A stretch of 32,000 nt of DNA from Cupriavidus necator (lineage in GTDB: Bacteria; Pseudomonadota; Gammaproteobacteria; Burkholderiales; Burkholderiaceae): NCBI RefSeq assembly GCF_016127575.1, contig NZ_CP066019.1:2580001-2612000 (forward strand), written 5' to 3'. Each line of letters starts with the position of its first letter. Position 1 is the first letter of the stretch. Under the pieces are notes generated by a model, which was not told where the DNA came from, made no database searches, and saw nothing but the letters and a program-made list of their open reading frames with translations. Positions 2,066-21,910 of the stretch are shown here, piece by piece. Made by a program: the position numbers and the translations under genes.

Positions 2066-3466
2066 TCAGCCGGTAGCCGACGAACCGGTGTCGTTGCGCG
2101 AGGCGCGCAGCCACTCTGGCAATTCGCCGCGGGCGGCATAATCTTCCAGCCGGTTGTACAAAGTCTTCAGGCTGATGCCGAGGATCTCGGCCGCGTGCTT
2201 CTTCACCCCCGCGCATTGCTCCAGCGTGGCGAAGATCAGCTGCCGGTCGGCATCGGCAAGGGACATGCCCACCGGCACCGACACCACCGCCGCGCCCGGC
2301 GCCTGCGTGGCCGCGACCTGCAGCGGCACCTGCACTTCGGTGATGAGGTCGTCGTCGGACATGATGAAGGCGCGCTGCACGAAGTTGCGCAGCTCGCGCA
2401 CATTGCCGGGCCAGGCGTGCAGGCGCAGGCTGTCCAGCACATTGGGCGCGAAGCGGCGCTGGGTGCCCTGCTCGGCATTGAGCTGGTCCAGCATCAGGTT
2501 GGCGATCTGGATCACGTCGTCGCCGCGCGCGCGCAGCGGCGGCAGTTCTACCGGGAACACGTTCAGCCTGTGGAACAGGTCCGCGCGCAGCTTGCCGTCG
2601 GCCACCGCATCTTCAGGGTTGCGGTTGGTGGCGGCCAGCACGCGCACATCGGCATGGCATTCGCGGTTGGTGCCCACGCGCATGAAGGTGCCGGTCTCCA
2701 GCACGCGCAGCAGCTTGACCTGCAGCTCGGCGGGCATCTCGGTGATCTCGTCCAGGAACAGAGTGCCGCCGTCGGCGCGCTCGAAATAGCCCTTGTGCTG
2801 GCGGTCCGCGCCGGTAAAGCTGCCGCGCTCGTGGCCGAACATCTCGCTTTCAATCAGCGTGGGCGAGATCGCGCCGCAGTTGACCGCCAGGAACGGCTGC
2901 CGCCGCCGCGACGAGAGCTCGTGCACGGTCTGCGCGGCCAGTTCCTTGCCGGTGCCGCTTTCGCCGATCAGCAGTACCGTGGCTTCAGTCGGGGCCACGC
3001 GGGCAAGCTGGTCGTAGACCACCTGCATCACTTCGGAACTGCCCATCAGCCGGCCGAAACGGCCGTAGCGGCGCAACTCGCCGCGCAGCGAATGGATCTC
3101 GGCGCGCAACTCGCCGGTGGTGGCCAGGCGCCTGAGCACGGTCTGCAGCCGCGCCACGTTGATGGGCTTGACCAGGTAATCGGTGGCACCGGCGCGCAGC
3201 GCTTCGACCGCGCTTTCCACACTGGCATAACCGGTCGTGAGGATCACTTCGACGCCCGAGGCGCCAACCTCGTCGAACAGCTCCATGCCGTTGCCGTCCG
3301 GCAGGCGCAGGTCCGCCACAATCGCCTCCGGCATGCGCCAGCCGATCTGCAGCCGTGCCTCGCGCAGGGTGCCCGCCGTGGCGGAGCTGAAGCCTTCCAT
3401 GGCCACGATCTCGGCTAGCGCGGCACATGCGTTTTCGTCGTCATCGACAATCAGGATGTGGGGCAT
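2066..3466 (-). CDS. sigma54-dependent response regulator (NtrC family: receiver + AAA+ + Fis-type HTH)
   Basis: The receiver is [11 protein letters not shown]...[13 protein letters not shown] with the acceptor Asp present. Walker A is GESGTGKE. The sigma54-contact loop is ERGSFTGA. The C-terminal HTH is [16 protein letters not shown]. Confidence 0.95.
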
Positions 3467-3822: not shown

Positions 3823-4884
3823 GTGCCCGTGACCGCCAGCACATCGCGGCGCAGCAACGCCGCTCTCTCTGGGCAGCCCGCCAGCCACGCCGCCAGCACA
3901 TCCGAGCCGGCGCGCGAGCCCGCGCCGCGCCGTGCCATACCCTCGCAGGTGTCGCTGCTGTGGGAAAGCGCGTCGCCCGCCATGCAACGCCTGCTGGCCC
4001 AGATCGAGCGCGTGGCGCCCACCGATGTCACCATGCTTGCGGTAGGCGAAAGCGGCTCCGGCAAGGAAGTGGTGGCGCGCGCGGTACATGAGCGCAGCGC
4101 GCGCCGCAACGGCCCCTTCATTGCGGTCAACTGCGGGGCGATCCAACCCACACTGATCGAGTCGGAACTGTTCGGCCACGAGAAAGGCGGCTTTACCGGC
4201 GCGATCGAGCAGAAGGCAGGCTACTTCGAGCAGGCCCATGGGGGCACGCTGTTTCTCGACGAAGTCACTGAAATGCCGCTCGAGATGCAGATCAAGTTGT
4301 TGCGGGTGCTGGAAGGCCGCACCTTCCACCGCGTCGGCGGCGACACGCCCATCGCCACCGACGTGCGCATCCTGGCAGCCACCAACCGCGACCCGGTCGA
4401 GGCAGCGCGTGCCGGCCAGTTGCGTGAAGACCTGCTGTACCGGCTGGCCGTGTTCCCACTGCATATCCCGCCGCTGCGCGAGCGGCCCGACGATATCGTG
4501 CCGCTGGCACGCCACTTCCTGGCCGAGTACAACGCCATGGAGCGCACCGACAAGGCCTTCTCGGCCGCCTCGCTGGAGCGGCTGGTGCGCTATGACTGGC
4601 CGGGCAATGTGCGCGAGCTGAAGAACGCCGTCTACCGCGCCTTTATCCTGGCCGACAAGGTCGTGGAGATCGGCAACCCCAACCTGGCCACGCAGCCGCC
4701 GCGGCCCACCACGGTAGACGGCGTGGTCAGCGTGCGCGTCGGCACCACGCTGGCCGACACCCAGCGCGAAATCATCATGGCCACGCTGGCGCGCTTTGAC
4801 GGCGACAAGCGCCAGGCCGCGCGCGCGCTCGGCATCAGCCTGAAGACGCTGTACAACCGGCTGGACGCCTACCGCTCCTTGTAA
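3823..4884 (+). CDS. sigma54 enhancer-binding protein lacking any N-terminal sensory or receiver domain (AAA+ + HTH only)
   Basis: About 45 low-complexity residues are followed directly by the AAA+ core ([36 protein letters not shown]) and the C-terminal [19 protein letters not shown]. The GTG start is as given in the ORF track. Confidence 0.9.
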
Positions 4885-8294: not shown

Positions 8295-11027
8295 ATGGCC
8301 AAGACCACGCGACCGACAGCGCCAAAGGATCCCGGCAAACGCCGCGCCGCGGCAAAAGGCGCCGGCAAGCCCACCGGCAAGCGCGCCAGCACGGCCCGCC
8401 CGGCGGCACGCGGCGCGCCAGCCGCCAAGGCCGCTCCCGCCGCGCTCGACAAATACCGTCGCATGCGCGACTTCGGCGCCACGCCTGAGCCCAGCGGCGC
8501 CGCGCGCACCCGCGGCAAGGTGCACAAGCGCGCCGGCGAGCTTTCCTTCGTGATCCAGAAGCACGCGGCGCGTCGGCTGCACTATGACTTTCGCCTCGAA
8601 CTCGGCGGCGCGCTGAAAAGCTGGGCCGTGCCCAAGGGGCCGAGCCTGGACCCGGCCGACAAGCGCATGGCCATCCATGTCGAGGACCATCCGCTGGACT
8701 ATGCCGGCTTCGAGGGCGTAATCCCCGCCGGCCACTATGGCGCCGGCACGGTCATCGTCTGGGACCGCGGCACCTGGTTGCCGGTAGGCGATGCCGAGGC
8801 CGGCTACCGCGCCGGCAAGCTGAAGTTCGAGCTGCGCGGTGAAAAGCTGCACGGTCACTGGACCCTGGTGCGCATGCACGGCAGCCGGCAGAAGGAGCAG
8901 GACGCCTGGCTGCTGATCAAGGAGCGCGACGAGACCGCCGTGCCGGCATCGGAGTTCGATGTGGTCGAGGCCTTGCCGGACAGCGTGCTGGGCGGCACGC
9001 AGCGCAAACCCGCGGCAAAGCGCGCGAAGTCCGCGCAGCCGCCTGACGAAGCCGCACCAGATGCACACGGCACGGCGAAATCCCTGAAGCCGCCGCGCGG
9101 CGCGCCGCGCGCGGCCTTGCCGCTGGCGCTGGCGCCGCAGCTGGCCACGCTGGTGGAGCAGCCTCCGTCCGACGCGCAGGCGTGGCGCTACGAGATCAAG
9201 TTCGACGGCTACCGGCTGCTGGCCCGCATCGACGGCAAGGATGTGCGCCTGTTCACGCGCCAGGGCAACGACTGGACCAGCAAGCTGCGTGCGCTGGCGC
9301 GCGACGTCGGCACCCTGGGCCTGCCCGATGGCTGGCTCGATGGCGAGATCGTGGTGCTCGGCAAGCATGGCGCGACCGACTTCCAGGCGCTGCAGAATGC
9401 CTTCGATACCGCGCGCGTCGAGGGCATCCAGTATTTCGTGTTCGACCTGCCCTACTTTGCCGGCCATGACCTGCGCAAGGTACCGCTGGTGGAGCGGCGC
9501 GCCCTGCTGCGCCGGATCTTCGCGCACAACACCTCGCCGCGCCTGCAGTTCAGCGAGGACTTCGAGGCCGGCCCTGCCGACATGCTCGAGGCAGCCTGCC
9601 GCATGAAGCTTGAAGGCGTGATCGGCAAGCGCGCCGACGCCGCCTATGTCAGCGCGCGCACCAGTACGTGGATCAAGCTGAAATGCACCTTGCGCCAGGA
9701 GTTCGTGGTGGCGGGCTTCACCGACCCGAAGGGCAGCCGCGCCGGCATCGGCTCGTTGCTGCTTGGCGTGCACGACAGCGGCGGGCGGCTGCGCTACGCG
9801 GGCAATGTCGGCACCGGCTTCGACGCGCGCACGCTGGGCGCGCTGCGCACGCAGCTGGACGCGTTGCGCGCCGATTCCGCGCCCTTTGAGAACGTGCCTG
9901 CAGGCGTAAAGGGGCACTGGGTGCGGCCAAAGCTGGTGGCCGAGGTCTCGTTCGGCAGCTGGACCCGCGAAGGCCGCGTGCGCCATGCCGTGTTCCACGG
10001 CCTGCGCACCGACAAGCCCGCGCGCGCGGTGTCGGTGGAGCGGCCGGCAACGCCGGCGGCCAACGGCAAGCCCGCGGCAACCACGGCAAAGCATGCCGGC
10101 ACACGGCCGAAGGCGGCGGCAAAGCGCACCACCGCCGCCGGCGGCAAGGTCGCGATCAGCCATGCCGAGCGCGTCATCGACACAGCATCCGGCCTGACCA
10201 AGGGCGACCTGGTGCGCTACTACGAACGCGCCGCGCCGCTGATCCTGCCGCACCTGCGCGGGCGACCGATCGCGATGGTGCGCGCGCCATCGGGCGTGGG
10301 CGGCGAGCAGTTCTTCCAGCGGCATAGCGACACGCTGCGGGTGGACGGCCTCAACGTGCTCGATCCGGGCCTGTGGCCTGGGCATCCCGCGCTGCTGGAA
10401 ATCGCGTCGGCCGAAGCCCTGGTGGCCGCGGCACAGCTCAATGTGGTGGAGTTCCACACCTGGAACGCCGGCAAGCGCAGCATCGAGCGCCCCAACCGCA
10501 TCGTCTTCGACCTGGACCCGGGCGAAGGCGTGCCCTGGCCACAAATGCAGGAAGCCGCCGCGCTGATGAAGGCGCTGCTCGATGAACTCGGCCTCGCCAG
10601 CTTCCTGAAGACCAGTGGCGGCAAGGGGCTGCACGTGGTGGTGCCGATCACGCCGCGTGCCGGGTGGGACGAGGTGAAGGCGTTCGCGCATGACGCGGTG
10701 CGCCATGTCGCCGCCACCGTGCCGCAGCGCTTCGTGGCCAAGAGCGGTCCAAGCAACCGCGTTGGCAAGATTTTCATCGATTACCTGCGCAATGGCATAG
10801 GCGCCACCACGGTGGCGGCATTCTCGGCGCGGGCACGCCCGGGGCTGGGGGTATCGATGCCGGTGTGGTGGGAGGAACTCGATAGCCTGCAAGGCGCGGC
10901 GCAGTGGACCGTGGCCAATGCCGGCCCGAGGCTCGACGCCGTGGCGGCCGACGACCCATGGGCGGACTACGCCGAAACCCGGCAGGCGATCACGCGCGCC
11001 GCGGCGCGACTGGCACGCGCCCGATAG
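8295..11027 (+). CDS. ligD: multidomain ATP-dependent DNA ligase D (phosphoesterase - ligase - polymerase/primase)
   Basis: The N-terminal 3'-phosphoesterase block is FVIQKHAARRLHYDFRLELGGALKSWAVPKGPS. The ligase adenylation motif I is YEIKFDGYRLL. The C-terminal LigD polymerase block reads VEFHTWN...FDLDPGEG...LKTSGGKGLHVVVP. Confidence 0.95.
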   Translation: MAKTTRPTAPKDPGKRRAAAKGAGKPTGKRASTARPAARGAPAAKAAPAALDKYRRMRDFGATPEPSGAARTRGKVHKRAGELSFVIQKHAARRLHYDFRLELGGALKSWAVPKGPSLDPADKRMAIHVEDHPLDYAGFEGVIPAGHYGAGTVIVWDRGTWLPVGDAEAGYRAGKLKFELRGEKLHGHWTLVRMHGSRQKEQDAWLLIKERDETAVPASEFDVVEALPDSVLGGTQRKPAAKRAKSAQPPDEAAPDAHGTAKSLKPPRGAPRAALPLALAPQLATLVEQPPSDAQAWRYEIKFDGYRLLARIDGKDVRLFTRQGNDWTSKLRALARDVGTLGLPDGWLDGEIVVLGKHGATDFQALQNAFDTARVEGIQYFVFDLPYFAGHDLRKVPLVERRALLRRIFAHNTSPRLQFSEDFEAGPADMLEAACRMKLEGVIGKRADAAYVSARTSTWIKLKCTLRQEFVVAGFTDPKGSRAGIGSLLLGVHDSGGRLRYAGNVGTGFDARTLGALRTQLDALRADSAPFENVPAGVKGHWVRPKLVAEVSFGSWTREGRVRHAVFHGLRTDKPARAVSVERPATPAANGKPAATTAKHAGTRPKAAAKRTTAAGGKVAISHAERVIDTASGLTKGDLVRYYERAAPLILPHLRGRPIAMVRAPSGVGGEQFFQRHSDTLRVDGLNVLDPGLWPGHPALLEIASAEALVAAAQLNVVEFHTWNAGKRSIERPNRIVFDLDPGEGVPWPQMQEAAALMKALLDELGLASFLKTSGGKGLHVVVPITPRAGWDEVKAFAHDAVRHVAATVPQRFVAKSGPSNRVGKIFIDYLRNGIGATTVAAFSARARPGLGVSMPVWWEELDSLQGAAQWTVANAGPRLDAVAADDPWADYAETRQAITRAAARLARAR

Positions 11028-14091: not shown

Positions 14092-15111
14092 GTGTCACGC
14101 ATCATCTGGAAAGGCGCCATAACCTTTGGCCTGGTCAATATCCCGGTAGTATTGCGGCCCGCGTCGCGCAGCCAGACGCTGGACCTTGACCTGCTGGACG
14201 TGCGCGACATGGCGCCGGTGGGCTACCAGCGCATCAACAAGAGCACCGGCAAGCCGGTCGACAAGGAGTATATCGTCAAGGGCTACCAGTACGCCAAGGA
14301 CGAATACGTGCTGCTGAACGAGGAAGACTTCCGCCAGGCCAATGTCGAGGCCACGCAGACGGTGGATATCGTCAGCTTTGTTGACGCGCAGAGCATCCCG
14401 CCGTACTACTTCGACACGCCCTACTACCTCGAGCCCGACAAGCGCGGCGAGCGCGGCTACGCGCTGCTGCACGAAACCATGCGCCGCACCGGGCGTGCCG
14501 CGCTGGCGCTGGTGGTGCTGCGCGCCCGCCAGCACCTGGCCGCGATGCTGGTGCACGGCGACGCGCTGGTGCTCAACACCATGCGCTTTGCCGACGAGGT
14601 GCTGCCCATCTCCGAACTGCGCCTGCCCAAGGCGACCACCGGCAAACCCACCGGCGCGCATGCGCGCGAGATCGAGATGGCCACCAAGCTGGTCGAAGAC
14701 ATGAGCGAAGACTGGGAGCCGGAACAGTACCGCGACAGCTATCGTGACGACCTGATGGCGCGCATCGAAGAAAAGATCGACTCCGGCAAGACCCACCAGC
14801 TGACCCCGCCTGCGGAAGAGGAAGAAGCGCCGCGCCAGGGCGCCAAGGTCATCGACATGGTGGCGCTGCTGCGCCAGAGCCTGGGCCAGCGCGGCAAGGA
14901 AGACAAGGAGGACGCCACGCCCGCGCGCCGCAAGGCCCCTGCGCGGCATGCCGCCGCCAGGAAGCAGCCCGCTGCCAAGCGGGCTGCGACCCCGCCTGCC
15001 AAGCGCGCCAGCACCGCCGCCAAGACCAAGCGTGCACCGGCCAAGCGCGAGTCGCACGCGCCGGCCGCGCGCAAGAGTTCAAGCACTACGCGCAGGAAGC
15101 ACGCGGCTTAG
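14092..15111 (+). CDS. ku: Ku DNA end-binding protein (NHEJ) with a long Lys/Arg/Ala-rich C-terminal tail
   Basis: Starts at a GTG preceded by AAGGAG. The N-terminus MSRIIWKGAITFGLVNIPVVL and PYYFDTPYYLEPDKRGERGYALL form the bacterial Ku core. The last roughly 80 residues are basic low complexity (ARRKAPARHAAARKQPAAKRAATPPAKRASTAAKTKRAPAKR). Confidence 0.95.
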   Translation: MSRIIWKGAITFGLVNIPVVLRPASRSQTLDLDLLDVRDMAPVGYQRINKSTGKPVDKEYIVKGYQYAKDEYVLLNEEDFRQANVEATQTVDIVSFVDAQSIPPYYFDTPYYLEPDKRGERGYALLHETMRRTGRAALALVVLRARQHLAAMLVHGDALVLNTMRFADEVLPISELRLPKATTGKPTGAHAREIEMATKLVEDMSEDWEPEQYRDSYRDDLMARIEEKIDSGKTHQLTPPAEEEEAPRQGAKVIDMVALLRQSLGQRGKEDKEDATPARRKAPARHAAARKQPAAKRAATPPAKRASTAAKTKRAPAKRESHAPAARKSSSTTRRKHAA

Positions 15112-15138
15112 GCAGGGGGGCCAAATTCCGATTGCGTT

Positions 15139-15166
15139 CTCCCTCTCCCGCGCGCGGGAGAGGGAG
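15139..15166. terminator. GC-rich perfect hairpin between convergent ku and the BON gene
   Basis: CTCCCTCTCCC-gcgcgc-GGGAGAGGGAG forms an 11-bp stem (extendable through the GC core). It sits between the ku stop (15111) and the BON-gene stop (15194). There is no clear U-tract on either strand. Confidence 0.5.
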
Positions 15167-15193
15167 CAAACCCTCAGCATCGGACAAACCCGC

Positions 15194-15634
15194 TTACCGC
15201 GATGACACCTTCAGGTTGTCATTGACCGACGTCACGCCCTCGACGCTGCGGATCGCGTCGAGCGCCAGGTCGTGCTGCTGCTGGCTCGGCACCGTGCCGC
15301 TCACGTCGACCGTGCCCTGCCTGGTTTTCACACGGATGCCGGTGGACTTGAGGTCCTTGGTCGTGAGCAGCTTGGTCTTGATCCTGGTGGTGATGGCACC
15401 GTCCTCGACGGCCCGCTTGGCCTTGTCGGCGCTCATGTCCGGGGCGGCGCCCCGGTCAGGGTCGGCACGGCCGGGCATGCCCGGCGCGGAATTGACGGGT
15501 GCCACAGGGGTATCGTCGGCCGCAACCAGGATCAGGCCGCTCTTGTCGAGCGCCAGCGCGCTACCGGCTACCGCCAGCGCGGCAGCAACACAGGCCATCC
15601 GCACGGTGCGCGCGGGAATTCGGGAAAAACGCAT
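15194..15634 (-). CDS. periplasmic BON-domain (OsmY-like) protein
   Basis: Start at ATG 15634 after a perfect AAGGAGG. The signal peptide is MRFSRIPARTVRMACVAAALAVAGSALA. The C-terminal BON pattern is ITTRIKTKLLTTKDLKSTGIRVKTRQGTVDVSGTVPSQQQHDLALDAIRSVEGVTSVNDNLKV. Confidence 0.85.
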   Translation of the reverse strand: MRFSRIPARTVRMACVAAALAVAGSALALDKSGLILVAADDTPVAPVNSAPGMPGRADPDRGAAPDMSADKAKRAVEDGAITTRIKTKLLTTKDLKSTGIRVKTRQGTVDVSGTVPSQQQHDLALDAIRSVEGVTSVNDNLKVSSR

Positions 15635-15870
15635 GGCTGCCTCCTTTTTCGGGTCACCAGCGCATCCGTTGCCGGACTTGCCTGGCACGCGGAACCACTG
15701 GTAAGGCATATTTCAGCAAGCTCCATACCTGCCGGGCAGGCCGCACCAGGCGTCCGCGGCGGGGCCCACGGCGTGTAAATCGGGCCACCCGTTGTAAAAG
15801 CGCCCGCCGCGTGATGTGCTGCATCCCCCGTTACAGGCCGTTGCTGGCGGCACCCCGGTCCTTCCATCCT

Positions 15871-15886
15871 TGGCATGGCGATTGCG
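15871..15886 (+). promoter_or_regulatory. sigma54 (RpoN) -24/-12 promoter motif upstream of the Gln/Gly-rich protein gene
   Basis: TGGCATGgcgaTTGCG has exact GG-N10-GC spacing. The predicted start near 15897 is about 31 nt before ATG 15928, which has its own AAGGAG. Confidence 0.6.
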
Positions 15887-15927
15887 AAACAGGGGATGCG
15901 GCAGTTCGCCGCGTCAAGGAGCTAGCA

Positions 15928-16203
15928 ATGGGACAGCAGCAACAGCCGGGTCAATCGCAGTCGGGCCAGAAGCCGCAGGAACAGAAGCAGCAGGAACAAT
16001 CTGGCCAACGCGGCAGCCAGCAGCAGCCGGGACAACAACAAGGCGGCGGTCAGATGGGTAACCAGGACCGCAAGCAGGACCAACAGCAGCAGCAGGATCG
16101 CGGCAGCTCGCAACCGGGCCAGCAAAGTGGCCAACGCAGCGGCCAGCAAAGCGGCCAGGGCGGGCAACAGGGTGGGCAACAAGGCGGACAACGCCAGCCG
16201 TAA
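15928..16203 (+). CDS. small Gln/Gly/Ser-rich intrinsically disordered protein (91 aa)
   Basis: The protein reads MGQQQQPGQSQSGQKPQEQKQQEQSGQRGSQQQPGQQQGGGQMGNQDRKQDQQQQQDRGSSQPGQQSGQRSGQQSGQGGQQGGQQGGQRQP. A strong Shine-Dalgarno AAGGAG lies 7 nt upstream, and two hairpins plus a T-run follow the gene. The ORF-track entry 15499..16203 is a long non-coding 5' extension of the same frame. Confidence 0.65.
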   Translation: MGQQQQPGQSQSGQKPQEQKQQEQSGQRGSQQQPGQQQGGGQMGNQDRKQDQQQQQDRGSSQPGQQSGQRSGQQSGQGGQQGGQQGGQRQP

Positions 16204-16297
16204 GTAAGCCGCGCCAGCCACGATAACAGGCAGCTTTCCGGGTATGTGCGGCCGCAACATGCGGTGCGGCCGCAGGGGCATACGCCGGAGATTGACA

Positions 16298-16334
16298 GGC
16301 CGGGACTCCCGCAAGGGGGCTCCGGCCCTTTTTG
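16298..16334 (+). terminator. rho-independent terminator after the Gln/Gly-rich gene
   Basis: GGCCGGGACTCCC-gcaa-GGGGGCTCCGGCC is an imperfect GC-rich stem, followed by CTTTTTG. Confidence 0.6.
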
Positions 16335-17375
16335 CGGCAACCGCCGCGGCATGACCCCGCGCACATCGCCCCGCATCCCGTGTATGCTGGCCCTGACTTC
16401 CCCATTCAGGCACCGGCCTTGTCCAGCTTTACCGACCCCGCCGCCGGCCGCTCTGCGCAGCCACGACGCGGCCCGCTGAACCATCTCTCCACCAGGCTGC
16501 GTGAGCGCGCCGGCGCGCACGTGCGCGCGCTGACCCGCAGCAATTCCGGCGTGACCCTCGACTACGACAACCCGCCGGGCGATCCCGGTCTGTTCGGGCC
16601 CGACGCGGTCTGCTGGCGCGTGCATGCCGACTTTCCGGCAATGCTCGCGGGCGGCGTCAGTGCGCTGCTGCTGCAGACACTGCATCCACTGGCACTGGCC
16701 GGGGTCTGGGACCACTCCAGCTTTCGCACCGACATGCAGGGGCGCCTGGGGCGCACCGCGCAGTTCATCGCCGGCACCACCTACGGCAGCCGTGCCGATG
16801 CCATGGCGCTGATCGGGCGCGTACGGCGCATCCATGCCGGCGTGGTCGGCGTGGCCCCGGACGGGCGGCACTATGCCGCCTCCGACCCGGCGTTGCTGAC
16901 GTGGGTGCACGTGGCCGAGGTCTCAAGCTTCCTGGCTGGCTACCTGCGCTATGTCGGACCACTGAGCGGCACCGAGCAGGATCGCTACTACGACGAGGTT
17001 GCGCGCATCGCCCAGATGCTGGGCGCGGCCGACGTGCCGCGCTCGCGCGCCGAAGTCACGGCCTACCTGGAGGCCATGCGGCCTGCGCTGCTGGCTAGCG
17101 AACGCACCAGCGAAGTGGTGCGGCTGGTGCGGAAGATGCCGGTGGCCAACCCGCTGCTGCAGCCGGCGGTGCGGATCATGGCCGACGCGGGCATCGCATT
17201 GCTGCCGCCGTGGGCACGGCAACAGCTCGATCTGGACGGCCCTTCGATACGGCGCCCGGCAGCACTCGCGGGCATGCATGTGCTGGCACCGACGCTGCGC
17301 TGGGTGCTGGGCGCCGGCCTGGCAGCGCGCGCACGGCGGCGCGTGGCCCGCGGCACCGCCACGACGGCAGGCTAA
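16332..17375 (+). CDS. MpaB/DUF2236-type oxygenase family protein (maximal ORF; the true start is probably internal)
   Basis: The block GLFGPDAVCWRVHADFPAMLAGGVSALLLQTLHPLALAGVWDHSSFRTDMQGRLGRTAQFIAGTTYGSRADAMALIGRVRRIHAGV is the pattern I associate with this family. The TTG at 16332 sits inside the T-run of the upstream terminator, so a downstream in-frame start (GTG 16380 or TTG 16419) is more plausible. Confidence 0.75.
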   Translation: MRQPPRHDPAHIAPHPVYAGPDFPIQAPALSSFTDPAAGRSAQPRRGPLNHLSTRLRERAGAHVRALTRSNSGVTLDYDNPPGDPGLFGPDAVCWRVHADFPAMLAGGVSALLLQTLHPLALAGVWDHSSFRTDMQGRLGRTAQFIAGTTYGSRADAMALIGRVRRIHAGVVGVAPDGRHYAASDPALLTWVHVAEVSSFLAGYLRYVGPLSGTEQDRYYDEVARIAQMLGAADVPRSRAEVTAYLEAMRPALLASERTSEVVRLVRKMPVANPLLQPAVRIMADAGIALLPPWARQQLDLDGPSIRRPAALAGMHVLAPTLRWVLGAGLAARARRRVARGTATTAG

Positions 17376-17435
17376 GGGCCGCGCCGGCTATCGGCGTTCA
17401 GCTGAACCTCTTGAACGGAAATGAGAATTGGCGGC

Positions 17436-17460
17436 AAAAATCCTCCCATTTCGGAGGATT
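17436..17460 (-). terminator. intrinsic terminator oriented for minus-strand transcription
   Basis: The minus strand reads AATCCTCC-gaaatg-GGAGGATT followed by TTTGCC. The T-run totals five when the stem end is included. No minus-strand CDS lies upstream of it. Confidence 0.5.
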
Positions 17461-17498
17461 GCGCGGCGCGAAAGTGGCGTTAAATCTGCTTGGGCAGT

Positions 17499-17519
17499 CC
17501 GAACGGCCGGTCGGTTTTT
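17499..17519 (+). terminator. weak plus-strand hairpin plus T5, possibly the terminator of the MpaB-family gene
   Basis: CCGAACGGCCGGTCGG is followed by TTTTTA, 124 nt after the stop at 17375. The stem is short and interrupted. Confidence 0.35.
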
Positions 17520-17570
17520 ACTAACCGCACCAGCCACAGCGCCACAGAGCGCGATTCAAACGACGCAGGC

Positions 17571-17607
17571 AAAAAAAGAAGCCTACGCGCGGGGTGCTCG
17601 TAGGCTT
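17571..17607 (-). terminator. strong intrinsic terminator oriented for minus-strand transcription (weaker on the plus strand)
   Basis: The minus strand reads AAGCCTACG-agcaccccgcg-CGTAGGCTT followed by CTTTTTTTG: a 9-bp stem and T7. On the plus strand only TTTTC follows the same stem. There is no annotated minus-strand gene between here and the Hfq-like gene. Confidence 0.6.
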
Positions 17608-18105
17608 TTCAGGACTGCTCGAGCTGAAAAGCTCTTGCCAAGAATATAAACGCGCTTACATGAGGTGTAAATCCCGTTTCTATCAGGGGATTCCCTTATG
17701 ACGATATGAGATTATTTGCGCACTTTTGATTGTTCTTAGCCCTGACGCTACATCAGGGCACTTTTCATATGGGCTGGCAATTTCATCGCGAGCCCGGTCC
17801 AACCGGCCTGTCGCCCCGCCGCCCTAGCCGCGGCATGCGGCAGCGCACAATGCTGTACAATATCACGGCCTCGAGAGCAACACATTTTATAGAGCGGCGA
17901 CTCTAGATCCGAATTGACACACGGTTCGTCAACGCTTGTAGAACTTTGTTACTCTCAGCCCTGAATTATTCCCCTTCTCTTCTGGCAGCGCCAACCGCCG
18001 GCACACGCGCCGTTACCGAGAGCGGATGTTTCTCGTGCCGCCCTGGCCGTGGCGCACCCCAAGCCATTAGCCGCCAGAACCCTTGCGGGCTCTTCCGGAG
18101 TCGTT

Positions 18106-18432
18106 GTGAAGAAGAAGGAAACCCGGCCCAAGTCACGCAGCCGGAGACAATTGCAACACCAGCAATTTGCGGCATACAGGACCAGCCAGGCCCCGGTGAT
18201 CGTCCACCTGGCCACCGGCGCCCGGCTGCAGGGCCTTGTCTTGGCGTCAGACGACTACGTGGTGCTGCTTGGCCGGCAGCCGGACGACATCCGGCCCACG
18301 GTGGTCTACAAGCGGGCGATCTGCCTGGTTACGCTGGCCAATGCGCCGGACGCGCCGGTGGTGGCGCCGGCTCCGGCGCCGGAGCCGGACTTCCTGCCGA
18401 TCTACATCCCCCGCACCAGCAAGCGCCGCTAG
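18106..18432 (+). CDS. Hfq-like (Sm-fold) protein with a basic N-terminus and a Pro/Ala-rich C-terminus
   Basis: ORF 18049..18432. Start preferred at GTG 18106 (GGAG 5 nt upstream), giving MKKKETRPKSRSRRQLQHQQFAAYRTSQAPVIVHLATGARLQGLVLASDDYVVLLGRQPDDIRPTVVYKRAICLVTL... This aligns by eye to E. coli Hfq [58 protein letters not shown]. The Sm1 (PV-x-I-x-L-x-x-G-x-x-LQG...D-x-x-V-x-LL) and Sm2 (VYK-x-AI) signatures are both kept. Third-position GC is high. Confidence 0.65.
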   Translation: MKKKETRPKSRSRRQLQHQQFAAYRTSQAPVIVHLATGARLQGLVLASDDYVVLLGRQPDDIRPTVVYKRAICLVTLANAPDAPVVAPAPAPEPDFLPIYIPRTSKRR

Positions 18433-18524
18433 GCCAACGCCCGCCCCACGCGCCTTCCTGCCCTGCCGCGCGGCGCCTCAGCCCGCCCTGCCGGTACCCC
18501 GCGAAACTATCGCGGAGATCACTC

Positions 18525-18551
18525 TAAACCTTTCTCTTGCCCGGTCGATAA
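18525..18551 (+). promoter_or_regulatory. sigma28 (FliA)-type promoter for fliC
   Basis: TAAA-cctttctcttgcccg-GTCGATAA matches TAAA-N15-GCCGATAA with exact 15-nt spacing. It lies about 97 nt upstream of the fliC ATG and downstream of the Hfq-like stop. Confidence 0.7.
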
Positions 18552-18647
18552 CCCAAGCAACGGAGGCACTCTACGCCCTGCAAAGCAGGCCGCCAACGTT
18601 ACGGCACTAGCCGGAATGCCCAAAACTTTGCATATAGGAGTCGTACC

Positions 18648-19955
18648 ATGGCGCAAGTCATTAACACCAATTCGTTGTCTCTGATGACTCAGAACAACAT
18701 GAACACGTCGCAATCGTCGCTGAACACGGCGATCCAGCGCCTGTCGTCGGGCCTGCGCATCAACAGCGCCAAGGACGACGCCGCCGGCCAGGCCATCGCC
18801 AACCGCTTTACCTCGAACATCCGCGGCCTGACGCAAGCCCAGCGCAACGCCAACGACGGCATCTCGCTGGCACAAACGACGGAAGGCGCGCTGACCGAAG
18901 TCAACAACAACCTGCAACGTATTCGTGAACTGTCGGTCCAGGCGGCCACGGGTTCGAACTCCTCGTCCGACCTGAAGTCGATTCAGGATGAAATCAACCA
19001 GCGCCTGTCTGAAATCGACCGTACGTCGCAACAGACCGACTTCAACGGCGTCAAGGTTCTGGCCGGCAGCAACAAGCTGTCCGTCCAGGTTGGCGCCAAC
19101 GACGGCGAGACCATCTCCATCGATCTGAAGCAGATCGACAGGACCACGCTGGGCCTGAGCGGCTTCTCGGTGGCCAAGAACTCGCTGGACGTCGGCCCGA
19201 AGATCACCACGATCAACGCTGCCGCTGGTACCGGTTCGTTCAACGTGAGCTTCGCTGCGGGCGACGTCACCAAGATCAACGCCGCAACCGGCAAGACCTT
19301 CGCCGCAGCGGACCTCGAACTGCACGAAGTCAAGACGGCTGCCGGCGCGAACTCTGGCCAGTTCGTCGTGAAGGCTGGTGACGACTACTTTGCTGCTTCG
19401 GTTGATCGTGCCACCGGCGCCGTGAAGCTCAACGAAGCTGATGTCGCATTCGACGACACCGCCAATGGCATCGCCGGCCCCGTCACTCTGCAAGACCAGG
19501 TAGTGCGTGTTGCCAACGATGCTGCAGGCGTAGCCACGGGCTACGTCACCGTCCAGGGCAAGAACTACGTCGCTGCCGGCACCCTGGCCGACGGCGGTGC
19601 CGCCGGCACCCTCAACGTGGCCGTTGGCACGATCTCCCTGAGCGGCGCCACCCCCACAGCCGAATTCACGGGCGTTCCCACCGGCAACGCACTGAAGAAG
19701 ATCGACGCCGCGCTGAAGCAAGTCGACGACCTGCGCAGCTCGCTGGGTGCCGTCCAGAACCGTTTTGACTCCGTCATCTCGAACCTGGGCACCACCGTGA
19801 CCAACCTGTCCTCGTCGCGCTCGCGCATCCAGGACGCCGACTACGCAACGGAAGTGTCGAACATGACCCGCGCGAACATCCTGCAACAGGCTGGTACGTC
19901 GGTCCTGGCGCAAGCCAACCAGACCACCCAAGGCGTGCTGTCGCTGCTGCGTTAA
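18648..19955 (+). CDS. fliC: flagellin
   Basis: The N-terminus is MAQVINTNSLSLMTQNNMNTSQSSLNTAIQRLSSGLRINSAKDDAAGQAIANRF and the C-terminus is LGAVQNRFDSVISNLGTTVTNLSSSRSRIQDADYATEVSNMTRANILQQAGTSVLAQANQTTQGVLSLLR. An AGGAG Shine-Dalgarno is present. Confidence 0.97.
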   Translation: MAQVINTNSLSLMTQNNMNTSQSSLNTAIQRLSSGLRINSAKDDAAGQAIANRFTSNIRGLTQAQRNANDGISLAQTTEGALTEVNNNLQRIRELSVQAATGSNSSSDLKSIQDEINQRLSEIDRTSQQTDFNGVKVLAGSNKLSVQVGANDGETISIDLKQIDRTTLGLSGFSVAKNSLDVGPKITTINAAAGTGSFNVSFAAGDVTKINAATGKTFAAADLELHEVKTAAGANSGQFVVKAGDDYFAASVDRATGAVKLNEADVAFDDTANGIAGPVTLQDQVVRVANDAAGVATGYVTVQGKNYVAAGTLADGGAAGTLNVAVGTISLSGATPTAEFTGVPTGNALKKIDAALKQVDDLRSSLGAVQNRFDSVISNLGTTVTNLSSSRSRIQDADYATEVSNMTRANILQQAGTSVLAQANQTTQGVLSLLR

Positions 19956-19977
19956 TCGCATCGGCGAATGGCGCAGG

Positions 19978-20006
19978 AAGGCTGGGCCGCAAGGCCCGGC
20001 CTTTTT
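19978..20006 (+). terminator. rho-independent terminator after fliC
   Basis: AAGGCTGGGCC-gcaa-GGCCCGGCCTT forms an 11-bp stem with one G-U pair, followed by a T-run (TTTTT including the stem end). Confidence 0.85.
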
Positions 20007-20092
20007 GCCCGAGGAGCATTTCGCAGGCAGCCCGACTGCCTGCAAAGCGTTTCTCCTGGAACTGAACCCTGCCAACCCGGACGGAGTATTCG

Positions 20093-20470
20093 ATGGCGCC
20101 TCCCCCGACAGTGAACCCCTTTACCGTGCGGATGCCAGCCGAAGGCTTAGCCGTTGCCATGCCATCTGGCGGCGCCACCACCATGGCCAGCCATGCTACG
20201 CAGCGACAGGATCGTGCCGTGGCCAGCGACCACACAGAAGCCGCACAGGGATTGGAAACCAGCGCCGCCATCGGCGAGCTGGTCGACGCGCTCAAGACCA
20301 CCACCATCGGCCTGCGCTTCGAGATCGACGATACCACGCACCGCGTCATCACCAAGGTGATCGACAAGGAAACCGGCGACCTGATCCGGCAGATGCCCAC
20401 CGAAGAGGTGCTGCGCATTGCCCGCGCCATCGACAAGCTGCAGGGGTTGTTCATCAACCACGCGGCCTGA
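20093..20470 (+). CDS. flaG: flagellar protein FlaG
   Basis: The C-terminal block LRFEIDDTTHRVITKVIDKETGDLIRQMPTEEVLRIARAIDKLQG is the FlaG family pattern. The gene sits between fliC and fliD. Confidence 0.85.
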   Translation: MAPPPTVNPFTVRMPAEGLAVAMPSGGATTMASHATQRQDRAVASDHTEAAQGLETSAAIGELVDALKTTTIGLRFEIDDTTHRVITKVIDKETGDLIRQMPTEEVLRIARAIDKLQGLFINHAA

Positions 20471-20503
20471 GCCCTGAATATCAGTTGAAGACGAGACAAT
20501 AAT

Positions 20504-21910
20504 ATGGCAACGATCTCCTCCATCGGCATCGGTTCCAACCTGCAACTGAGCGACCTGCTGGACCAGCTGCAGAAGGCCGAGCAGGCACCGCTTGACGCCA
20601 TCAATGCGCAGGCCAAGAGCTACCAGACCAAGTTGTCGGCCTACAGTCAGGTGCAGAGCGTGCTGGACGCCTACCAGGGCGCGGCGAAGAAGCTGTCCGA
20701 TGCTGCCACCTTCGGCGCAGTAAAGGCCAGCATCGGCACCACGGACGTGATGAACGTCACCACCGCTGCCAACGCCGTGCCTGGCAGCTACAGCATTACT
20801 GTCAACACGCTGGCCACCGCGCAGTCGCTGGTGAGCAGCAACGTTGCCGACCAGAAGGCCGCGATCGGTGGCGGCGAGCTCGTGTTCGACTTCGGCGAAG
20901 CGCTGGCCACCGGTGGCGCCGCCACTAGCACCAAGAAGGTCACCATCCCCGCGGATTCTTCGCTCGAAGGAATGCGCGATGCCATCAACAAGGCCAGCAT
21001 CGGCGTGACGGCCAGCATCGTCAATGACGGCAGCGCCAGCCCTTACCGCCTGGTATTGACGTCGGACAAGACCGGAACGCAAGCCACCATGCGGGTGTCG
21101 TCGACCGATGCGGCACTGAACAACGTGGTTGCGTTCGACCCGGCCGCGGCGCCCGCCGCCAACAAGATGGAACAGAAGGTGCCGCCTGCCAATGCGACGC
21201 TGACGATCAACGGCATCGACGTGGTCAGCCAGAGCAATTCAGTGGTGGACGCAGCGCAGGGCGTGACCATGAACCTTGTCAAGCCAGGCACGACATCGCT
21301 GGTGGTGACCCGCGACAACGTCGCAATCAAGGCCGCCGTCCAGGCTTTTGTCACCGCCTACAACAACATTCAGAGTTCCGCCAAGTCGCTGACGGCATTC
21401 GATACGAAGGCCGGTACGTCCGCGGCATTGACCGGCGACGGCACGCTGCGCTCGATCCAGTCCAGCCTGCGTTCAATGCTGGGCGGTGCCATGGATGACG
21501 GCAACGGCGGCACGATCACGCTGATCGACGTCGGCATCTCGTTCGACAAAGACGGCACGATGAAGCTGGACGACACCAAGCTGACCAAGGCGATAAACGA
21601 AGACCTGGGTGGCGTCACGTCCCTGTTTTCCAGCACCACCGGCGACGGAGGCATCGGCAAGCGCGCCAGCACCTATATCGAGGGCCTGAGCAAGACCGAT
21701 GGCGCGCTGAAGGTGGCTCAGGATGGCATCACCAAGACGCTGAAGGACCTGGAAGACGACTATGACCGCGTCCAGGACCGCGTTACTGCCACGGTGGCTC
21801 GATACAAGGCCCAGTTCACGCAACTGGACCTGGTGGTAGCGCAGATGAACCGTACCAGCAGCTACCTGACGCAACAGTTCAATGCGCTGAACAACAGCAC
21901 CAAGAAGTAA
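20504..21910 (+). CDS. fliD: flagellar filament capping protein FliD
   Basis: The N-terminus is MATISSIGIGSNLQLSDLLDQLQKAEQAPLDAINAQAKSYQTKLSAYSQV. The C-terminus is RYKAQFTQLDLVVAQMNRTSSYLTQQFNAL. Confidence 0.95.
   Translation: MATISSIGIGSNLQLSDLLDQLQKAEQAPLDAINAQAKSYQTKLSAYSQVQSVLDAYQGAAKKLSDAATFGAVKASIGTTDVMNVTTAANAVPGSYSITVNTLATAQSLVSSNVADQKAAIGGGELVFDFGEALATGGAATSTKKVTIPADSSLEGMRDAINKASIGVTASIVNDGSASPYRLVLTSDKTGTQATMRVSSTDAALNNVVAFDPAAAPAANKMEQKVPPANATLTINGIDVVSQSNSVVDAAQGVTMNLVKPGTTSLVVTRDNVAIKAAVQAFVTAYNNIQSSAKSLTAFDTKAGTSAALTGDGTLRSIQSSLRSMLGGAMDDGNGGTITLIDVGISFDKDGTMKLDDTKLTKAINEDLGGVTSLFSSTTGDGGIGKRASTYIEGLSKTDGALKVAQDGITKTLKDLEDDYDRVQDRVTATVARYKAQFTQLDLVVAQMNRTSSYLTQQFNALNNSTKK

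Follow-up and report, generated by a model that had tools for sequence, protein, structure and literature searches.

The DNA analyzed here, which we call the window, is a stretch of 32,000 nucleotides from Cupriavidus necator (contig NZ_CP066019.1, positions 2,580,001 to 2,612,000). On its plus strand, an open reading frame referred to below as hfq-like begins with a GTG at position 18106 and ends with its stop codon at 18432, encoding a protein of 108 amino acids. It is followed by fliC, the flagellin gene (18648–19955; Pfam Flagellin_N and Flagellin_C, NCBIfam FliC/FljB), and the 215 nt reported in the first-pass annotation for the spacer between hfq-like and the fliC ATG at 18648 were found to be correct. 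A longer open reading frame starting at 18049 also exists. Three observations favor the GTG at 18106 as the start: a Shine–Dalgarno GGAG, read directly from the sequence, lies 5 nt upstream (18097–18100), all homologues are called at about 105–109 amino acids, and the region further upstream is conserved as nucleotides, with indels that break the frame. The GGAG is unchanged in 14 of 14 aligned leaders. The encoded protein is composed of a basic N-terminal extension (residues 1–14), an Sm/Hfq core (residues ~13–77), a Pro/Ala linker and the C-terminal motif PDFLPIYIPRTSKRR; both the basic N-terminus and the Pro/Ala-rich tail described earlier are present. In the family alignments the C-terminal motif is conserved as PDFxPxYxPRTRKRR, and this tail belongs to the best-conserved parts of the family even though it is predicted to be disordered.

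Judged by sequence profiles and structure prediction, the hfq-like ORF encodes a genuine Hfq-fold protein. The Pfam Hfq model PF17209 matches it with an E-value of 7e-11 and 42 bits (gathering score 27), over 60 of the 64 profile positions. A sequence search of the PDB returned Hfq chains only (best E = 3e-5), the best match being a betaproteobacterial Hfq, and the alignments from this search reproduced the Sm1 and Sm2 correspondences to Hfq, as well as the four-residue insertion before Sm2, that had previously been aligned by eye. In sequence, the resemblance to Hfq is far beyond chance. The AlphaFold2 model predicts a helix followed by five strands (helix 13–27; strands 30–35, 40–48, 52–56, 65–68 and 72–77) with a core pLDDT of 81–92; a first run with 13 close sequences gave a pLDDT of 67, and the better model was obtained after divergent members had been added. 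When the model was used as a Foldseek query, the top 50 matches were all crystal structures of Hfq (TM 0.79–0.89, rmsd 1.3–2.1 Å). The claim of a divergent Hfq-fold protein was thus borne out by Pfam, the PDB search, AlphaFold2 and Foldseek alike.

Compared with canonical Hfq (E. coli, Herbaspirillum, Burkholderia), the protein shares the helix and five strands (TM 0.8–0.9), the Sm1 and Sm2 motifs, and a set of residues predicted to contact RNA. Within the family, the conserved residues of the RNA faces are Q17, Y/F51, Y68, K69, H34, G38 and R40. Q17, Y68 and K69 do not vary and position 51 is Y or F throughout, so that in Hfq numbering the proximal face keeps Q8, the aromatic residue 42, Y55 and K56. 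The equivalent of H57 is R in the clade of the window and H or Q in other members, and three of the four residues of the uridine pocket (Q8, F42, K56, H57) are accordingly kept in the window protein. On the distal face G29 and L32 of canonical Hfq are retained. Here H34 is nearly invariant, G38 invariant, position 39 variable and R40 nearly invariant, and the A-R-N site (Y25, G29, I30, K31), conserved among members of the family, departs from that of E. coli. The differences from canonical Hfq comprise Y25 to H, K31 to R and, in the window's clade, H57 to R, together with the four-residue insertion, the basic N-terminal extension, and a C-terminal tip that is basic and conserved where that of canonical Hfq is acidic. 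The arginine patch on the rim is lost as well. E. coli Hfq needs this patch (R16, R17, R19, K47) for RNA annealing, and its equivalents in the hfq-like proteins are R/S/H, T/I, Q/R and G, giving 0–2 basic residues depending on the species. The rim patch is a feature of annealing activity, not of membership in the Hfq family.

Hfq normally occurs as one global chaperone, and the hfq-like gene is a Cupriavidus-specific paralogue of it. The protein scores below all NCBIfam cut-offs for Hfq equivalogs (35.2 against 61.7 bits for TIGR02383 and 33.2 against 95 bits for NF001602) and is 39% identical to the Hfq of Burkholderiaceae. It is encoded on the second replicon, between an mpaB-like gene and fliC, and not in the conserved hfq neighborhood with miaA, hflX/hflKC and der. 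In C. necator H16 the canonical hfq lies within H16_A2359–A2369 on chromosome 1 (PMC3734047), and together with the equivalog scores and the low identity this separate gene confirms that hfq-like is an extra copy and not the housekeeping one. A protein search combined with a cluster look-up for the canonical Cupriavidus Hfq gave no Cupriavidus-named entry among the matches listed. The hfq-like family comprises about 73 protein clusters, every named one of them from Cupriavidus, and at 50% identity it accounts for only about 10 clusters among 1.84 billion representatives. Burkholderiaceae, the range named for a synteny survey in the first-pass annotation, is therefore too broad, as in the protein searches the family was found only in Cupriavidus; the plasmid collection, consulted for a Ralstonia outgroup, gave no flagellin record of that genus. 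Across the genus the ORFs are intact at 105–110 amino acids, a few variants being longer, at most about 235 amino acids, and dN/dS ranges from 0.13 to 0.54 in 15 pairs. The gene is under purifying selection.

Upstream of hfq-like, on the opposite strand, we identified a candidate small RNA gene of about 66 nt (17571–17636, minus strand). It is preceded by a sigma-70-type promoter (17643–17671, minus strand) made up of TTTACA (17671–17666), a spacer of 17 nt and TATATT (17648–17643), which matches the consensus at 10 of 12 positions and hardly varies across the window and the full set of 22 related loci. Directly upstream of this promoter there is a conserved CTGATAGAAAC element. The predicted transcript consists of a first hairpin (17634–17621), the invariant single-stranded stretch GAGCAGUCCUG(A/G)AAA (17620–17606), a terminator stem (17605–17581) and a U-tract (17580–17571). 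It thereby has the features of an Hfq-type base-pairing sRNA, namely an own promoter, a short structured transcript, a single-stranded seed and a U-tailed Rho-independent terminator. The fold has a z-score of −3.27, none of 200 shuffles being equally stable, and 99.5% of the cells in the alignment pair, as against 21–51% when the partners are slid. Covariation is sparse because the sRNA hardly varies, and it did not exceed the shuffle controls; in C. metallidurans CH34 the first hairpin has a different sequence and a 7-bp hairpin is retained. In CH34 (NC_007974.2) the sRNA is predicted at about 1951108–1951181 on the minus strand, with hfq-like at 1951767–1952087 on the plus strand and the fliC ATG at 1952310. 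An Rfam scan of positions 15000–21000 gave no match at E ≤ 1, and no sRNA gene is annotated at 17571–17636 in the gene calls examined. The divergent sRNA gene is new here. Of the terminator-ended candidate small RNAs that the first-pass annotation had placed in the AT-rich spacer, this one proved to be well supported.

The sRNA, its promoter and its terminator are present in the window and in 22 of 22 related loci. A search with the sRNA core alone retrieved 19 metagenome contigs, and hfq-like adjoins the sRNA in all 17 that could be assessed; counting these, the sRNA accompanies hfq-like in 40 of 40 assessable loci. The two form a strictly conserved two-gene module. When both strands of the window were scanned for duplexes with the sRNA seed, nothing above background was found in the leaders of hfq-like or fliC, where the best duplex reached −18.4 kcal/mol compared with −20 for the 1% quantile of the background. 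The top match on the plus strand, at the start of fliT (22386), was discarded as a target for want of conservation in other species.

Between the sRNA gene and hfq-like lies a region with several conserved elements. The motif TTGTA(G/A)AACTTTGTTAC, containing two TTGT(A/T)A half-sites 10 bp apart (17936–17952, plus strand), is unique in the window, with 0 occurrences expected by chance. Its exact form TTGTAAAANTTTGTTAC occurs once per locus in 14 of 22 loci, always upstream of hfq-like, while the remaining eight carry close variants or, in the locus L006, do not have the block. The motif is a candidate regulator or promoter site for hfq-like. No sigma-28-type promoter was found before hfq-like at up to two mismatches in a scan of the window, and inspection by eye revealed no convincing sigma-70 or sigma-54 site upstream of the gene, the TTGTAAAAnTTTGTTAC motif being the only one conserved there. 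Further downstream, a pyrimidine-rich block TATTCCCCTTCTCTTCTGGCAGCGCC (17967–17992, plus strand), conserved in most loci, is complementary to the purine-rich start of the coding sequence, GTGAAGAAGAAGGAAA, and the two pair in both the minimum free energy and the centroid fold of 17955–18135; the fold of this leader as a whole is no more stable than shuffled sequences (z = +0.19). The conserved motif CCGAGAGCG(G/A)ATGTTTC (18016–18032, plus strand) contains an ATG at 18026 that opens an upstream ORF. Among close relatives this ORF differs in length and frame: in the window it ends early, in L006 it is in frame, and in most species it runs into the GTG as GTGA. It was therefore dismissed as a conserved peptide. 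A terminator-like hairpin at 18010–18025 was also rejected as an attenuator, its stem being only 5 bp and weak in divergent loci. Immediately before the start codon, a consensus fold of 14 sequences (RNAalifold) predicts a hairpin at 18071–18098 (plus strand; CCG.CAGA.CCC-loop-GGG.UCU..CGG) with nine pairs, nearly all of them kept and one showing a compensatory change, which is weak evidence. The first two G of the Shine–Dalgarno sequence lie within its 3′ arm, and the hairpin is therefore a possible translational control element. Together with the pairing of the CU-rich block to the start of the coding sequence, it suggests that translation of hfq-like may itself be controlled.

fliC is the first gene of a fliC-flaG-fliD-fliS-fliT-fliK block. 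Its own sigma-28-type promoter, previously proposed downstream of the hfq-like stop, was confirmed at 18525–18551 (plus strand; TAAA-N15-GTCGATAA) with one mismatch to the consensus, and is conserved in all relatives; the window holds four sigma-28-type matches at up to two mismatches, compared with 0.23 expected from shuffles. The fliC 5′ leader (18552–18647, plus strand) is almost invariant across Cupriavidus, and when species whose hfq-like genes have a dS of about 0.6 are compared, 151 nt of the leader region are 98–99% identical. The leader contains two small hairpins (CCUGC-AAA-GCAGG; CGGC-ACUA-GCCG) as well as three GGA motifs, and its Shine–Dalgarno sequence is preceded by an A/U-rich stretch. 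The first hairpin shows one compensatory change, in the locus L007, and the fold is not unusually stable relative to shuffles (z = 0.05).

The hfq-like gene borders the fliC-fliD-fliS-fliT-fliK block in 35 of 35 loci and lies directly upstream of fliC in 33 of them. In the other two (L017 and L020) the block is inverted, which parts hfq-like from fliC, and the sRNA partner is retained. The neighbors on the left-hand side vary between loci (mpaB-like, MCP, MFS). The synteny survey suggested earlier gave a positive result, the filament block being bordered in every locus examined, although adjacency to fliC itself is lost in two. The strictly conserved unit is hfq-like with the sRNA, not hfq-like with fliC, and its position at the border of the filament genes (fliC to flhB′) is fixed.

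The occurrence of an Hfq paralogue and an sRNA gene at the flagellin end of a flagellar cluster suggests an unstudied RNA-based control of motility; we found no publication on this Cupriavidus paralogue in the literature. The best reading, which we hold with moderate confidence, is a specialized Hfq/sRNA pair, probably acting on motility mRNAs. The protein would assemble into an Sm ring, the proximal face of which (Q8, aromatic 42, Y55, K56) would bind the U-tailed terminator of the neighboring sRNA, and the basic N-terminal extension and basic C-terminal tip may replace the lost arginine patch on the rim. The pair would then adjust the translation or stability of motility mRNAs, the most attractive candidate target being the almost invariant fliC leader. 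Beyond the fold, the selection and the paralogue status of the protein, this reading is favored by the conserved residues of the RNA faces, the strictly conserved module, the constant position beside the filament block and the constraint on the fliC leader. Against it count the degenerate rim patch, the R in place of H57 in the window's clade, the failure to find a sigma-28-type promoter before hfq-like or conserved pairing of the sRNA seed with either leader, the inversions in L017 and L020, the ordinary stability of both leaders and the sparse covariation of the sRNA; the canonical Hfq might also serve this sRNA just as well. That the remodeled Hfq duplicate and its one dedicated sRNA form a private Cupriavidus riboregulatory device, gating flagellin synthesis through this leader, appears unlikely to us. 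The control of flagellin proposed in the first-pass annotation, with the fliC leader as prime target, is a hypothesis; no flagellar-class promoter was found for hfq-like, and no conserved complementarity was found between the sRNA and this leader. If such a device did exist, it would add an independent third answer to the problem that CsrA-FliW and FlbT-FlaF solve, and hfq-like would be the first Hfq paralogue specialized to one pathway and one sRNA.

A somewhat unlikely explanation, which several of the same observations favor, is that hfq-like encodes another Hfq, general-purpose or niche, which works with its own sRNA on a non-flagellar regulon, the module having been inserted at this site in the Cupriavidus ancestor and never moved. 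This would agree with the identity of the strictly conserved unit, with survival of the gene through the inversion that separates it from fliC, with the failure to find a flagellar-class promoter upstream of it, and with an sRNA for which no complementarity to local flagellar mRNAs was found; other paralogues such as Burkholderia Hfq2 are likewise not pathway-specific (PMC7074383). However, the gene borders the filament block in every locus, even at dS values above 1, while the other flank has changed repeatedly, both inversion breakpoints fall exactly between hfq-like and fliC and leave the gene at the cluster border, and the unusual constraint on the fliC leader is seen in precisely the genus carrying the paralogue.

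Quite improbable, in our view, is a re-use of the Sm ring mainly for binding protein or DNA, with PDFxPxYxPRTRKRR and the basic N-terminus docking a flagellar component (an export chaperone or ATPase) or DNA, much as cyanobacterial Hfq binds the pilus ATPase PilB1. The high conservation of a tail predicted to be disordered, the loss of the RNA-annealing patch on the rim and the proximity of fliC and of the chaperone genes fliS and fliT would all fit such a role, but the uridine pocket residues Q8, F/Y42, Y55 and K56 are invariant, and this is difficult to account for unless the protein binds RNA. Moreover, the U-tailed sRNA gene co-occurs in every locus, whereas no co-conserved gene for a partner protein was seen apart from the general flagellar genes. 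That hfq-like is a duplicate without function or in decay, or an ORF that arose by chance, would be in keeping with the many spurious ORFs of GC-rich DNA and with the much faster evolution of hfq-like than of the mpaB-like gene (58–93% against 82–97% protein identity). This explanation is effectively refuted by ORFs that stay intact at 105–110 amino acids throughout the genus, dN/dS below 0.55 in all pairs, an invariant Shine–Dalgarno sequence and start context, and the significant Pfam match combined with a confident fold prediction.

A specialized Hfq/sRNA pair acting on motility mRNAs would have partial counterparts among known systems. CsrA-FliW in Bacillus and Campylobacter and FlbT-FlaF in Caulobacter and Brucella are post-transcriptional checkpoints on flagellin mRNA. 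The Cupriavidus locus resembles them in having a gene for a regulator of RNA-binding type, as predicted for hfq-like, in the filament cluster, and in the strongly conserved flagellin leader with its GGA motifs and a site close to the Shine–Dalgarno sequence. There is no homology to CsrA (PF02599) or FlbT, as Pfam reports only Hfq models for hfq-like, and the flagellar cluster contains flaG, fliD, fliS, fliT and fliK but no FliW, FlaF or FlbT gene; the resemblance would be functional only. The arrangement of the module recalls oxyR-oxyS and gcvA-gcvB, divergent regulator–sRNA pairs in which the protein is a transcription factor activating the sRNA promoter. In these cases too an sRNA with its own promoter and intrinsic terminator diverges from the gene of its partner protein, whereas the partner in Cupriavidus is an RNA chaperone paralogue.

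To our knowledge, the question of why some bacteria retain a second Hfq is largely unanswered. The closest comparison is Hfq2 of B. cenocepacia, a protein of 175–216 amino acids with a long C-terminal domain and a cis-encoded sRNA, h2cR (PMC3474761, PMC7074383). Both are lineage-specific second copies in Burkholderiaceae that evolve faster than the canonical one, and both have a small RNA gene on the opposite strand in the upstream region. Hfq2 is a conserved protein of Burkholderia and Paraburkholderia that has no linkage to flagellar genes, whereas the hfq-like members are mostly 105–110 amino acids long and the named ones all come from Cupriavidus. Among the close matches of our protein searches, no Hfq2-like sequence was nearer to the hfq-like family than ordinary Hfq. 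The sRNA genes are arranged differently as well: h2cR overlaps the 5′ UTR of hfq2, and the Cupriavidus sRNA, with a predicted start some 470 nt before the hfq-like start codon, is transcribed in the direction leading away from the gene. With a narrow and datable origin in one genus, a fixed sRNA partner and a fixed neighborhood at the flagellin operon, chaperone specialization becomes directly testable in this system, for which C. necator H16 and C. metallidurans CH34 are tractable strains. The lost rim patch, the gained basic tails and the basic C-terminal tip also amount to a natural experiment on which Hfq surfaces are required for which activity.

A small protein called "Hfq" and encoded inside a flagellar gene cluster has a precedent in FlgV (BB0268) of Borrelia burgdorferi, which was once annotated as Hfq and turned out to be unrelated in sequence and structure and not to bind RNA (PMC11607428). 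In contrast to FlgV, the Cupriavidus protein passes the sequence and fold tests for Hfq, and the case is a reminder that the "Hfq" label needs testing. NCBI names the hfq-like proteins "RNA chaperone Hfq", and their status as a distinct paralogue is therefore masked by the automatic label.

We found that the product of the hfq-like gene at 18106-18432 (+) scores 42 bits against the Pfam Hfq family (PF17209; E=7e-11), for which the gathering score is 27, and that all 34 matches in a PDB sequence search are Hfq or Hfq-like, with Hfq from Herbaspirillum seropedicae at the top (E=3e-5). The PDB alignments reproduced the Sm1 and Sm2 motifs that the first-pass annotation had aligned by eye, and the short insertion described before Sm2 amounts to four residues. 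In the structure search proposed there as a check, AlphaFold2, supplied with 21 family members, produced a model with a core pLDDT of 81-92 and an Sm topology with a helix (13-27) and five strands, and the best 50 Foldseek matches in the PDB were all Hfq chains (target-normalised TM 0.79-0.89, rmsd 1.3-2.1 Å). Profile score, PDB matches and predicted fold thus bear out the proposal of a divergent Hfq-like Sm protein. The protein scores under all NCBIfam Hfq equivalog cut-offs (e.g., 35 vs. 61.7 bits) and shares 39% identity over 70 residues with the Hfq common to 41 Burkholderiaceae. The housekeeping hfq of C. necator H16 lies on chromosome 1 in the cluster H16_A2359-A2369, while fliC (H16_B2360) is on chromosome 2 (PMC3734047). 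Both sequence and fold place the protein in the Hfq family, yet it is not the housekeeping orthologue. It carries the NCBI pipeline label 'RNA chaperone Hfq', and the gene is therefore annotated already, but undistinguished from the canonical copy.

The ORF comprises 108 codons with a GTG start, and a longer ORF is possible from 18049. The start at 18106 was preferred because GGAG (18097-18100) is placed 5 nt ahead of it, because gene calls for all homologues give about 105-109 aa, and because the DNA 5' of 18106 is conserved at the nucleotide level with frame-breaking indels among close relatives; the window itself carries a 14-nt deletion in this region. Purifying selection on the gene is shown by dN/dS ratios of 0.13-0.54 (Nei-Gojobori, 15 pairs, dS up to about 1.5); its protein nevertheless changes faster than that of the mpaB-like neighbour (58-93% vs. 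82-97% identity). The product is almost certainly a genuine functional Hfq-fold paralogue.

When the family was aligned to E. coli Hfq, whose numbering is used here, the equivalents of Q8 (Q17 in the window protein), Y55 and K56 were invariant, position 42 was Y or F in every member, and H57 was represented by R in the window's clade and by H or Q in more divergent clades. The distal face retains G29 and L32 in all members; a nearly invariant H takes the place of Y25 and a nearly invariant R that of K31, and the position of I30 varies. The rim patch formed by R16, R17, R19, and K47 has degenerated to 0-2 basic residues. The very basic N-terminus noticed earlier turned out to be a family-wide extension, MKKKEIRPKxPSRR, directly ahead of the helix. 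At the other end, a variable Pro/Ala linker precedes a C-terminal motif absent from the first-pass annotation, (S)PDF(V/L)P(I/L)Y(I/T)PR(T)R(K)RR, which in the form PDF(V/L)P(I/L)Y(I/T)PRTRKRR (18394-18429, +; residues 94-108) is among the best-conserved parts of the family. Both tails are predicted by AlphaFold2 to be disordered (pLDDT 56-61). In E. coli and Caulobacter Hfq, an acidic C-terminal tip reportedly docks onto the basic rim; whereas canonical Hfq combines acidic tail ends with a basic rim, the Hfq-like protein has a basic tip, the charges being reversed.

Searched exhaustively with an HMMER profile, a set of 1.84 billion representatives yielded only about 10 clusters at 50% identity with a match over the full length, followed by ordinary and tandem Hfq proteins at E about 1e-10. 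In a 5.8-billion-protein set, about 73 clusters at 90% identity had E<=1e-27, with a gap thereafter to 1e-17. Every cluster with an organism name belongs to Cupriavidus, including C. taiwanensis, C. nantongensis, C. necator, C. oxalaticus, C. metallidurans, C. pinatubonensis, C. basilensis, C. plantarum, C. respiraculi, C. gilardii, and C. malaysiensis as well as many unnamed strains, and judged by these names the family therefore looks genus-wide and genus-specific.

The hfq-like gene adjoins fliC in C. necator strains. The order hfq-like, 180-320 nt, fliC-(flaG)-fliD-fliS-fliT-fliK-flhB' was observed in the window and 20 related genomic loci, is identical in 12 further metagenome contigs, and persists down to about 40% protein identity. 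In the window the spacer is 215 nt long, as claimed, and ends at the fliC ATG at 18648. The suggested synteny survey accordingly places the gene at the border of the filament block throughout, with two loci from uncultured relatives in which the block is inverted (L017, 6466-12333; L020, 5262-11154), so that hfq-like converges on flhB'. The breakpoint in both is exactly between hfq-like and fliC, and both are devoid of the CU-rich leader block described below. On the left side the neighbour varies: the window's clade has an mpaB-like oxygenase, other loci an MCP or an MFS transporter. Farther left, the window genes are non-flagellar (sigma-54 response regulator, hybrid kinase, SDR, LigD, kinase, Ku, and BON-domain protein), and hfq-like thus marks the block border. 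The NHEJ pair LigD (8295-11027) and Ku (14092-15111), located immediately to the left of the flagellar cluster, flanks a hybrid histidine kinase gene, and members of the window's clade share this arrangement.

Upstream of hfq-like there is in every case about 620-1160 nt of non-coding DNA, and alignment of eleven species revealed a near-invariant block in it at about 17530-17700. On the minus strand, this block contains, in order, a promoter (TTTACA, 17-nt spacer, TATATT; 17671-17643; 10/12 consensus positions), a hairpin of 5 bp (GAGCU-UUUC-AGCUC), the invariant sequence GAGCAGUCCUG(A/G)AAA, which is single-stranded, a GC-rich terminator hairpin, and a run of at least seven U that ends at 17571. 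Conservation drops immediately past the U-tract and, on the promoter side, beyond a CTGATAGAAAC element adjoining the -35. This candidate sRNA gene of ~66 nt (17571-17636, -) has the classical Hfq-dependent architecture and was found with promoter and terminator in the window and in 22 of 22 related loci; in C. metallidurans CH34 the first hairpin differs in sequence, yet a 7-bp hairpin remains. The predicted fold equals the proposed structure (z=-3.27, 0/200 shuffles equally stable), 99.5% of alignment cells pair compared with 21-51% when partners are slid, and two pairs occur in three types each (CG/UG/UA and UG/UA/CG). The RNA is too invariant for its pairing to exceed shuffle controls, and no Rfam family matched at E<=1. 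Scanning metagenome contigs with the sRNA core alone gave 19 contigs; hfq-like lies divergently about 500-650 nt away in all 17 with neighbouring DNA, and the other two end short of its position. The two genes co-occur in 40 of 40 assessable cases and hence constitute one module. What is conserved at the flagellin operon of this single genus is an Hfq paralogue together with a private candidate sRNA gene.

Downstream, fliC (18648-19955, +) is preceded by a sigma-28-type match, TAAA-N15-GTCGATAA (18525-18551), with one mismatch to the consensus; the window is enriched in matches of this kind at up to two mismatches (4 observed vs. 0.23 expected). No intrinsic terminator was detected between hfq-like and fliC and read-through is possible, but fliC clearly possesses a promoter of its own, in line with the earlier claim of separate transcription. 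Promoter and 5' leader (18500-18650) share 98-99% identity over 151 nt between Cupriavidus species that differ by about 0.6 at synonymous sites of hfq-like, and are still recognisable in the most divergent members; they are conserved beyond every nearby gene, and the leader is under strong constraint. Two small hairpins, with one compensatory change, lie in the leader together with an A/U-rich tract ahead of the SD and three GGA motifs, one in the SD, reminiscent of CsrA-type sites; the fold of the leader is not unusually stable (z=0.05). The N-terminal 151 flagellin residues (18648-19100) show 78-82% identity to Salmonella/E. coli FliC/FljB copies on plasmid records, and the 85% to other Cupriavidus flagellins is hardly higher. 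Two near-identical, inverted sigma-28-like matches about 1.3 kb apart, TAAAGC.GCC...CTCGTGGCCGAACA at 2815-2841 (+) and 4169-4195 (-), look like repeat arms rather than promoters; one of them falls within the gene for the sigma-54 response regulator (2069-3466, -).

We propose that the Hfq-like protein would form an Sm ring whose retained proximal pocket may bind the U-tailed terminator of the sRNA, that the basic tails would make up for the lost rim patch, and that the pair may regulate mRNAs post-transcriptionally, plausibly motility mRNAs. The protein probably binds RNA, and the chances that its partner is the neighbouring sRNA appear evenly balanced. Post-transcriptional control of flagellin, as suggested earlier, is a reasonable hypothesis; control of flagellin or motility is judged somewhat less likely than not. 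Against the flagellin-specific version count the two inversions parting hfq-like from fliC, and the failure to find a flagellar-class promoter for hfq-like or conserved sRNA complementarity to the fliC or hfq-like leaders. The best local sRNA match, at the fliT start, is unconserved and was rejected as a target.

These same observations leave some room for a second Hfq with an unrelated regulon and a merely historical location by fliC, an explanation we regard as rather unlikely; adjacency to the filament block is kept in every locus examined. The conserved C-terminal tail could also mean that the Sm ring is re-used for protein or DNA binding, which seems improbable beside the invariant Q8, Y55 and K56 equivalents and the constant sRNA neighbour. 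That hfq-like is a decaying duplicate, as its fast evolution might suggest, is effectively refuted by the dN/dS ratios, the AlphaFold2 model and the homologue survey. Among known systems, Burkholderia Hfq2 with the cis-encoded sRNA h2cR (PMC3474761, PMC7074383) is the closest precedent. Hfq2 is twice as long, is without flagellar linkage, and is no nearer in sequence to the Hfq-like protein than ordinary Hfq. CsrA-FliW and FlbT-FlaF are functional analogies only, without homology and with their partner genes absent here. The Borrelia 'Hfq' BB0268 is the flagellar protein FlgV, unrelated to Hfq (PMC11607428), a case showing that the label needs testing; the Cupriavidus protein passes. No publication on the Cupriavidus paralogue or its sRNA was found in the literature, and a 2021 review describes riboregulation in C. 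necator as undeciphered (PMC8401924). The private sRNA gene takes the finding beyond the first-pass annotation.

Further conserved elements were observed around hfq-like. One is a hairpin (GCCCTGA...TCAGGGC, 17739-17759, +) with a weak T-rich tail after it, located between the promoter of the sRNA and the leader of hfq-like; its stem varies among species with pairing kept, and the segment is wholly deleted in L006, the locus of Cupriavidus sp. UYPR2.512. The element TTGTA(G/A)AACTTTGTTAC (17936-17952) consists of two direct half-sites spaced by one helical turn. It occurs only once in the window, and nearly all loci have it upstream of hfq-like, either identical or as a close variant. A CU-rich block (17967-17992) is complementary to the purine-rich CDS start, and the MFE and centroid predictions for the leader both contain this pairing, but the leader is no more stable than shuffles (z=+0.19). 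The leader also contains the conserved element CCGAGAGCG(G/A)ATGTTTC (18016-18032) and a hairpin (18071-18098) with its 3' arm over half of the SD. An upstream ORF (18026-18069, ATG at 18026) is opened by the conserved SD-like GAGAG and ATGTTTC; most relatives have 33 codons in it, up to a GTGA that overlaps the start of hfq-like, the 14-nt deletion makes it stop early in the window, and in L006 it is in frame with hfq-like.
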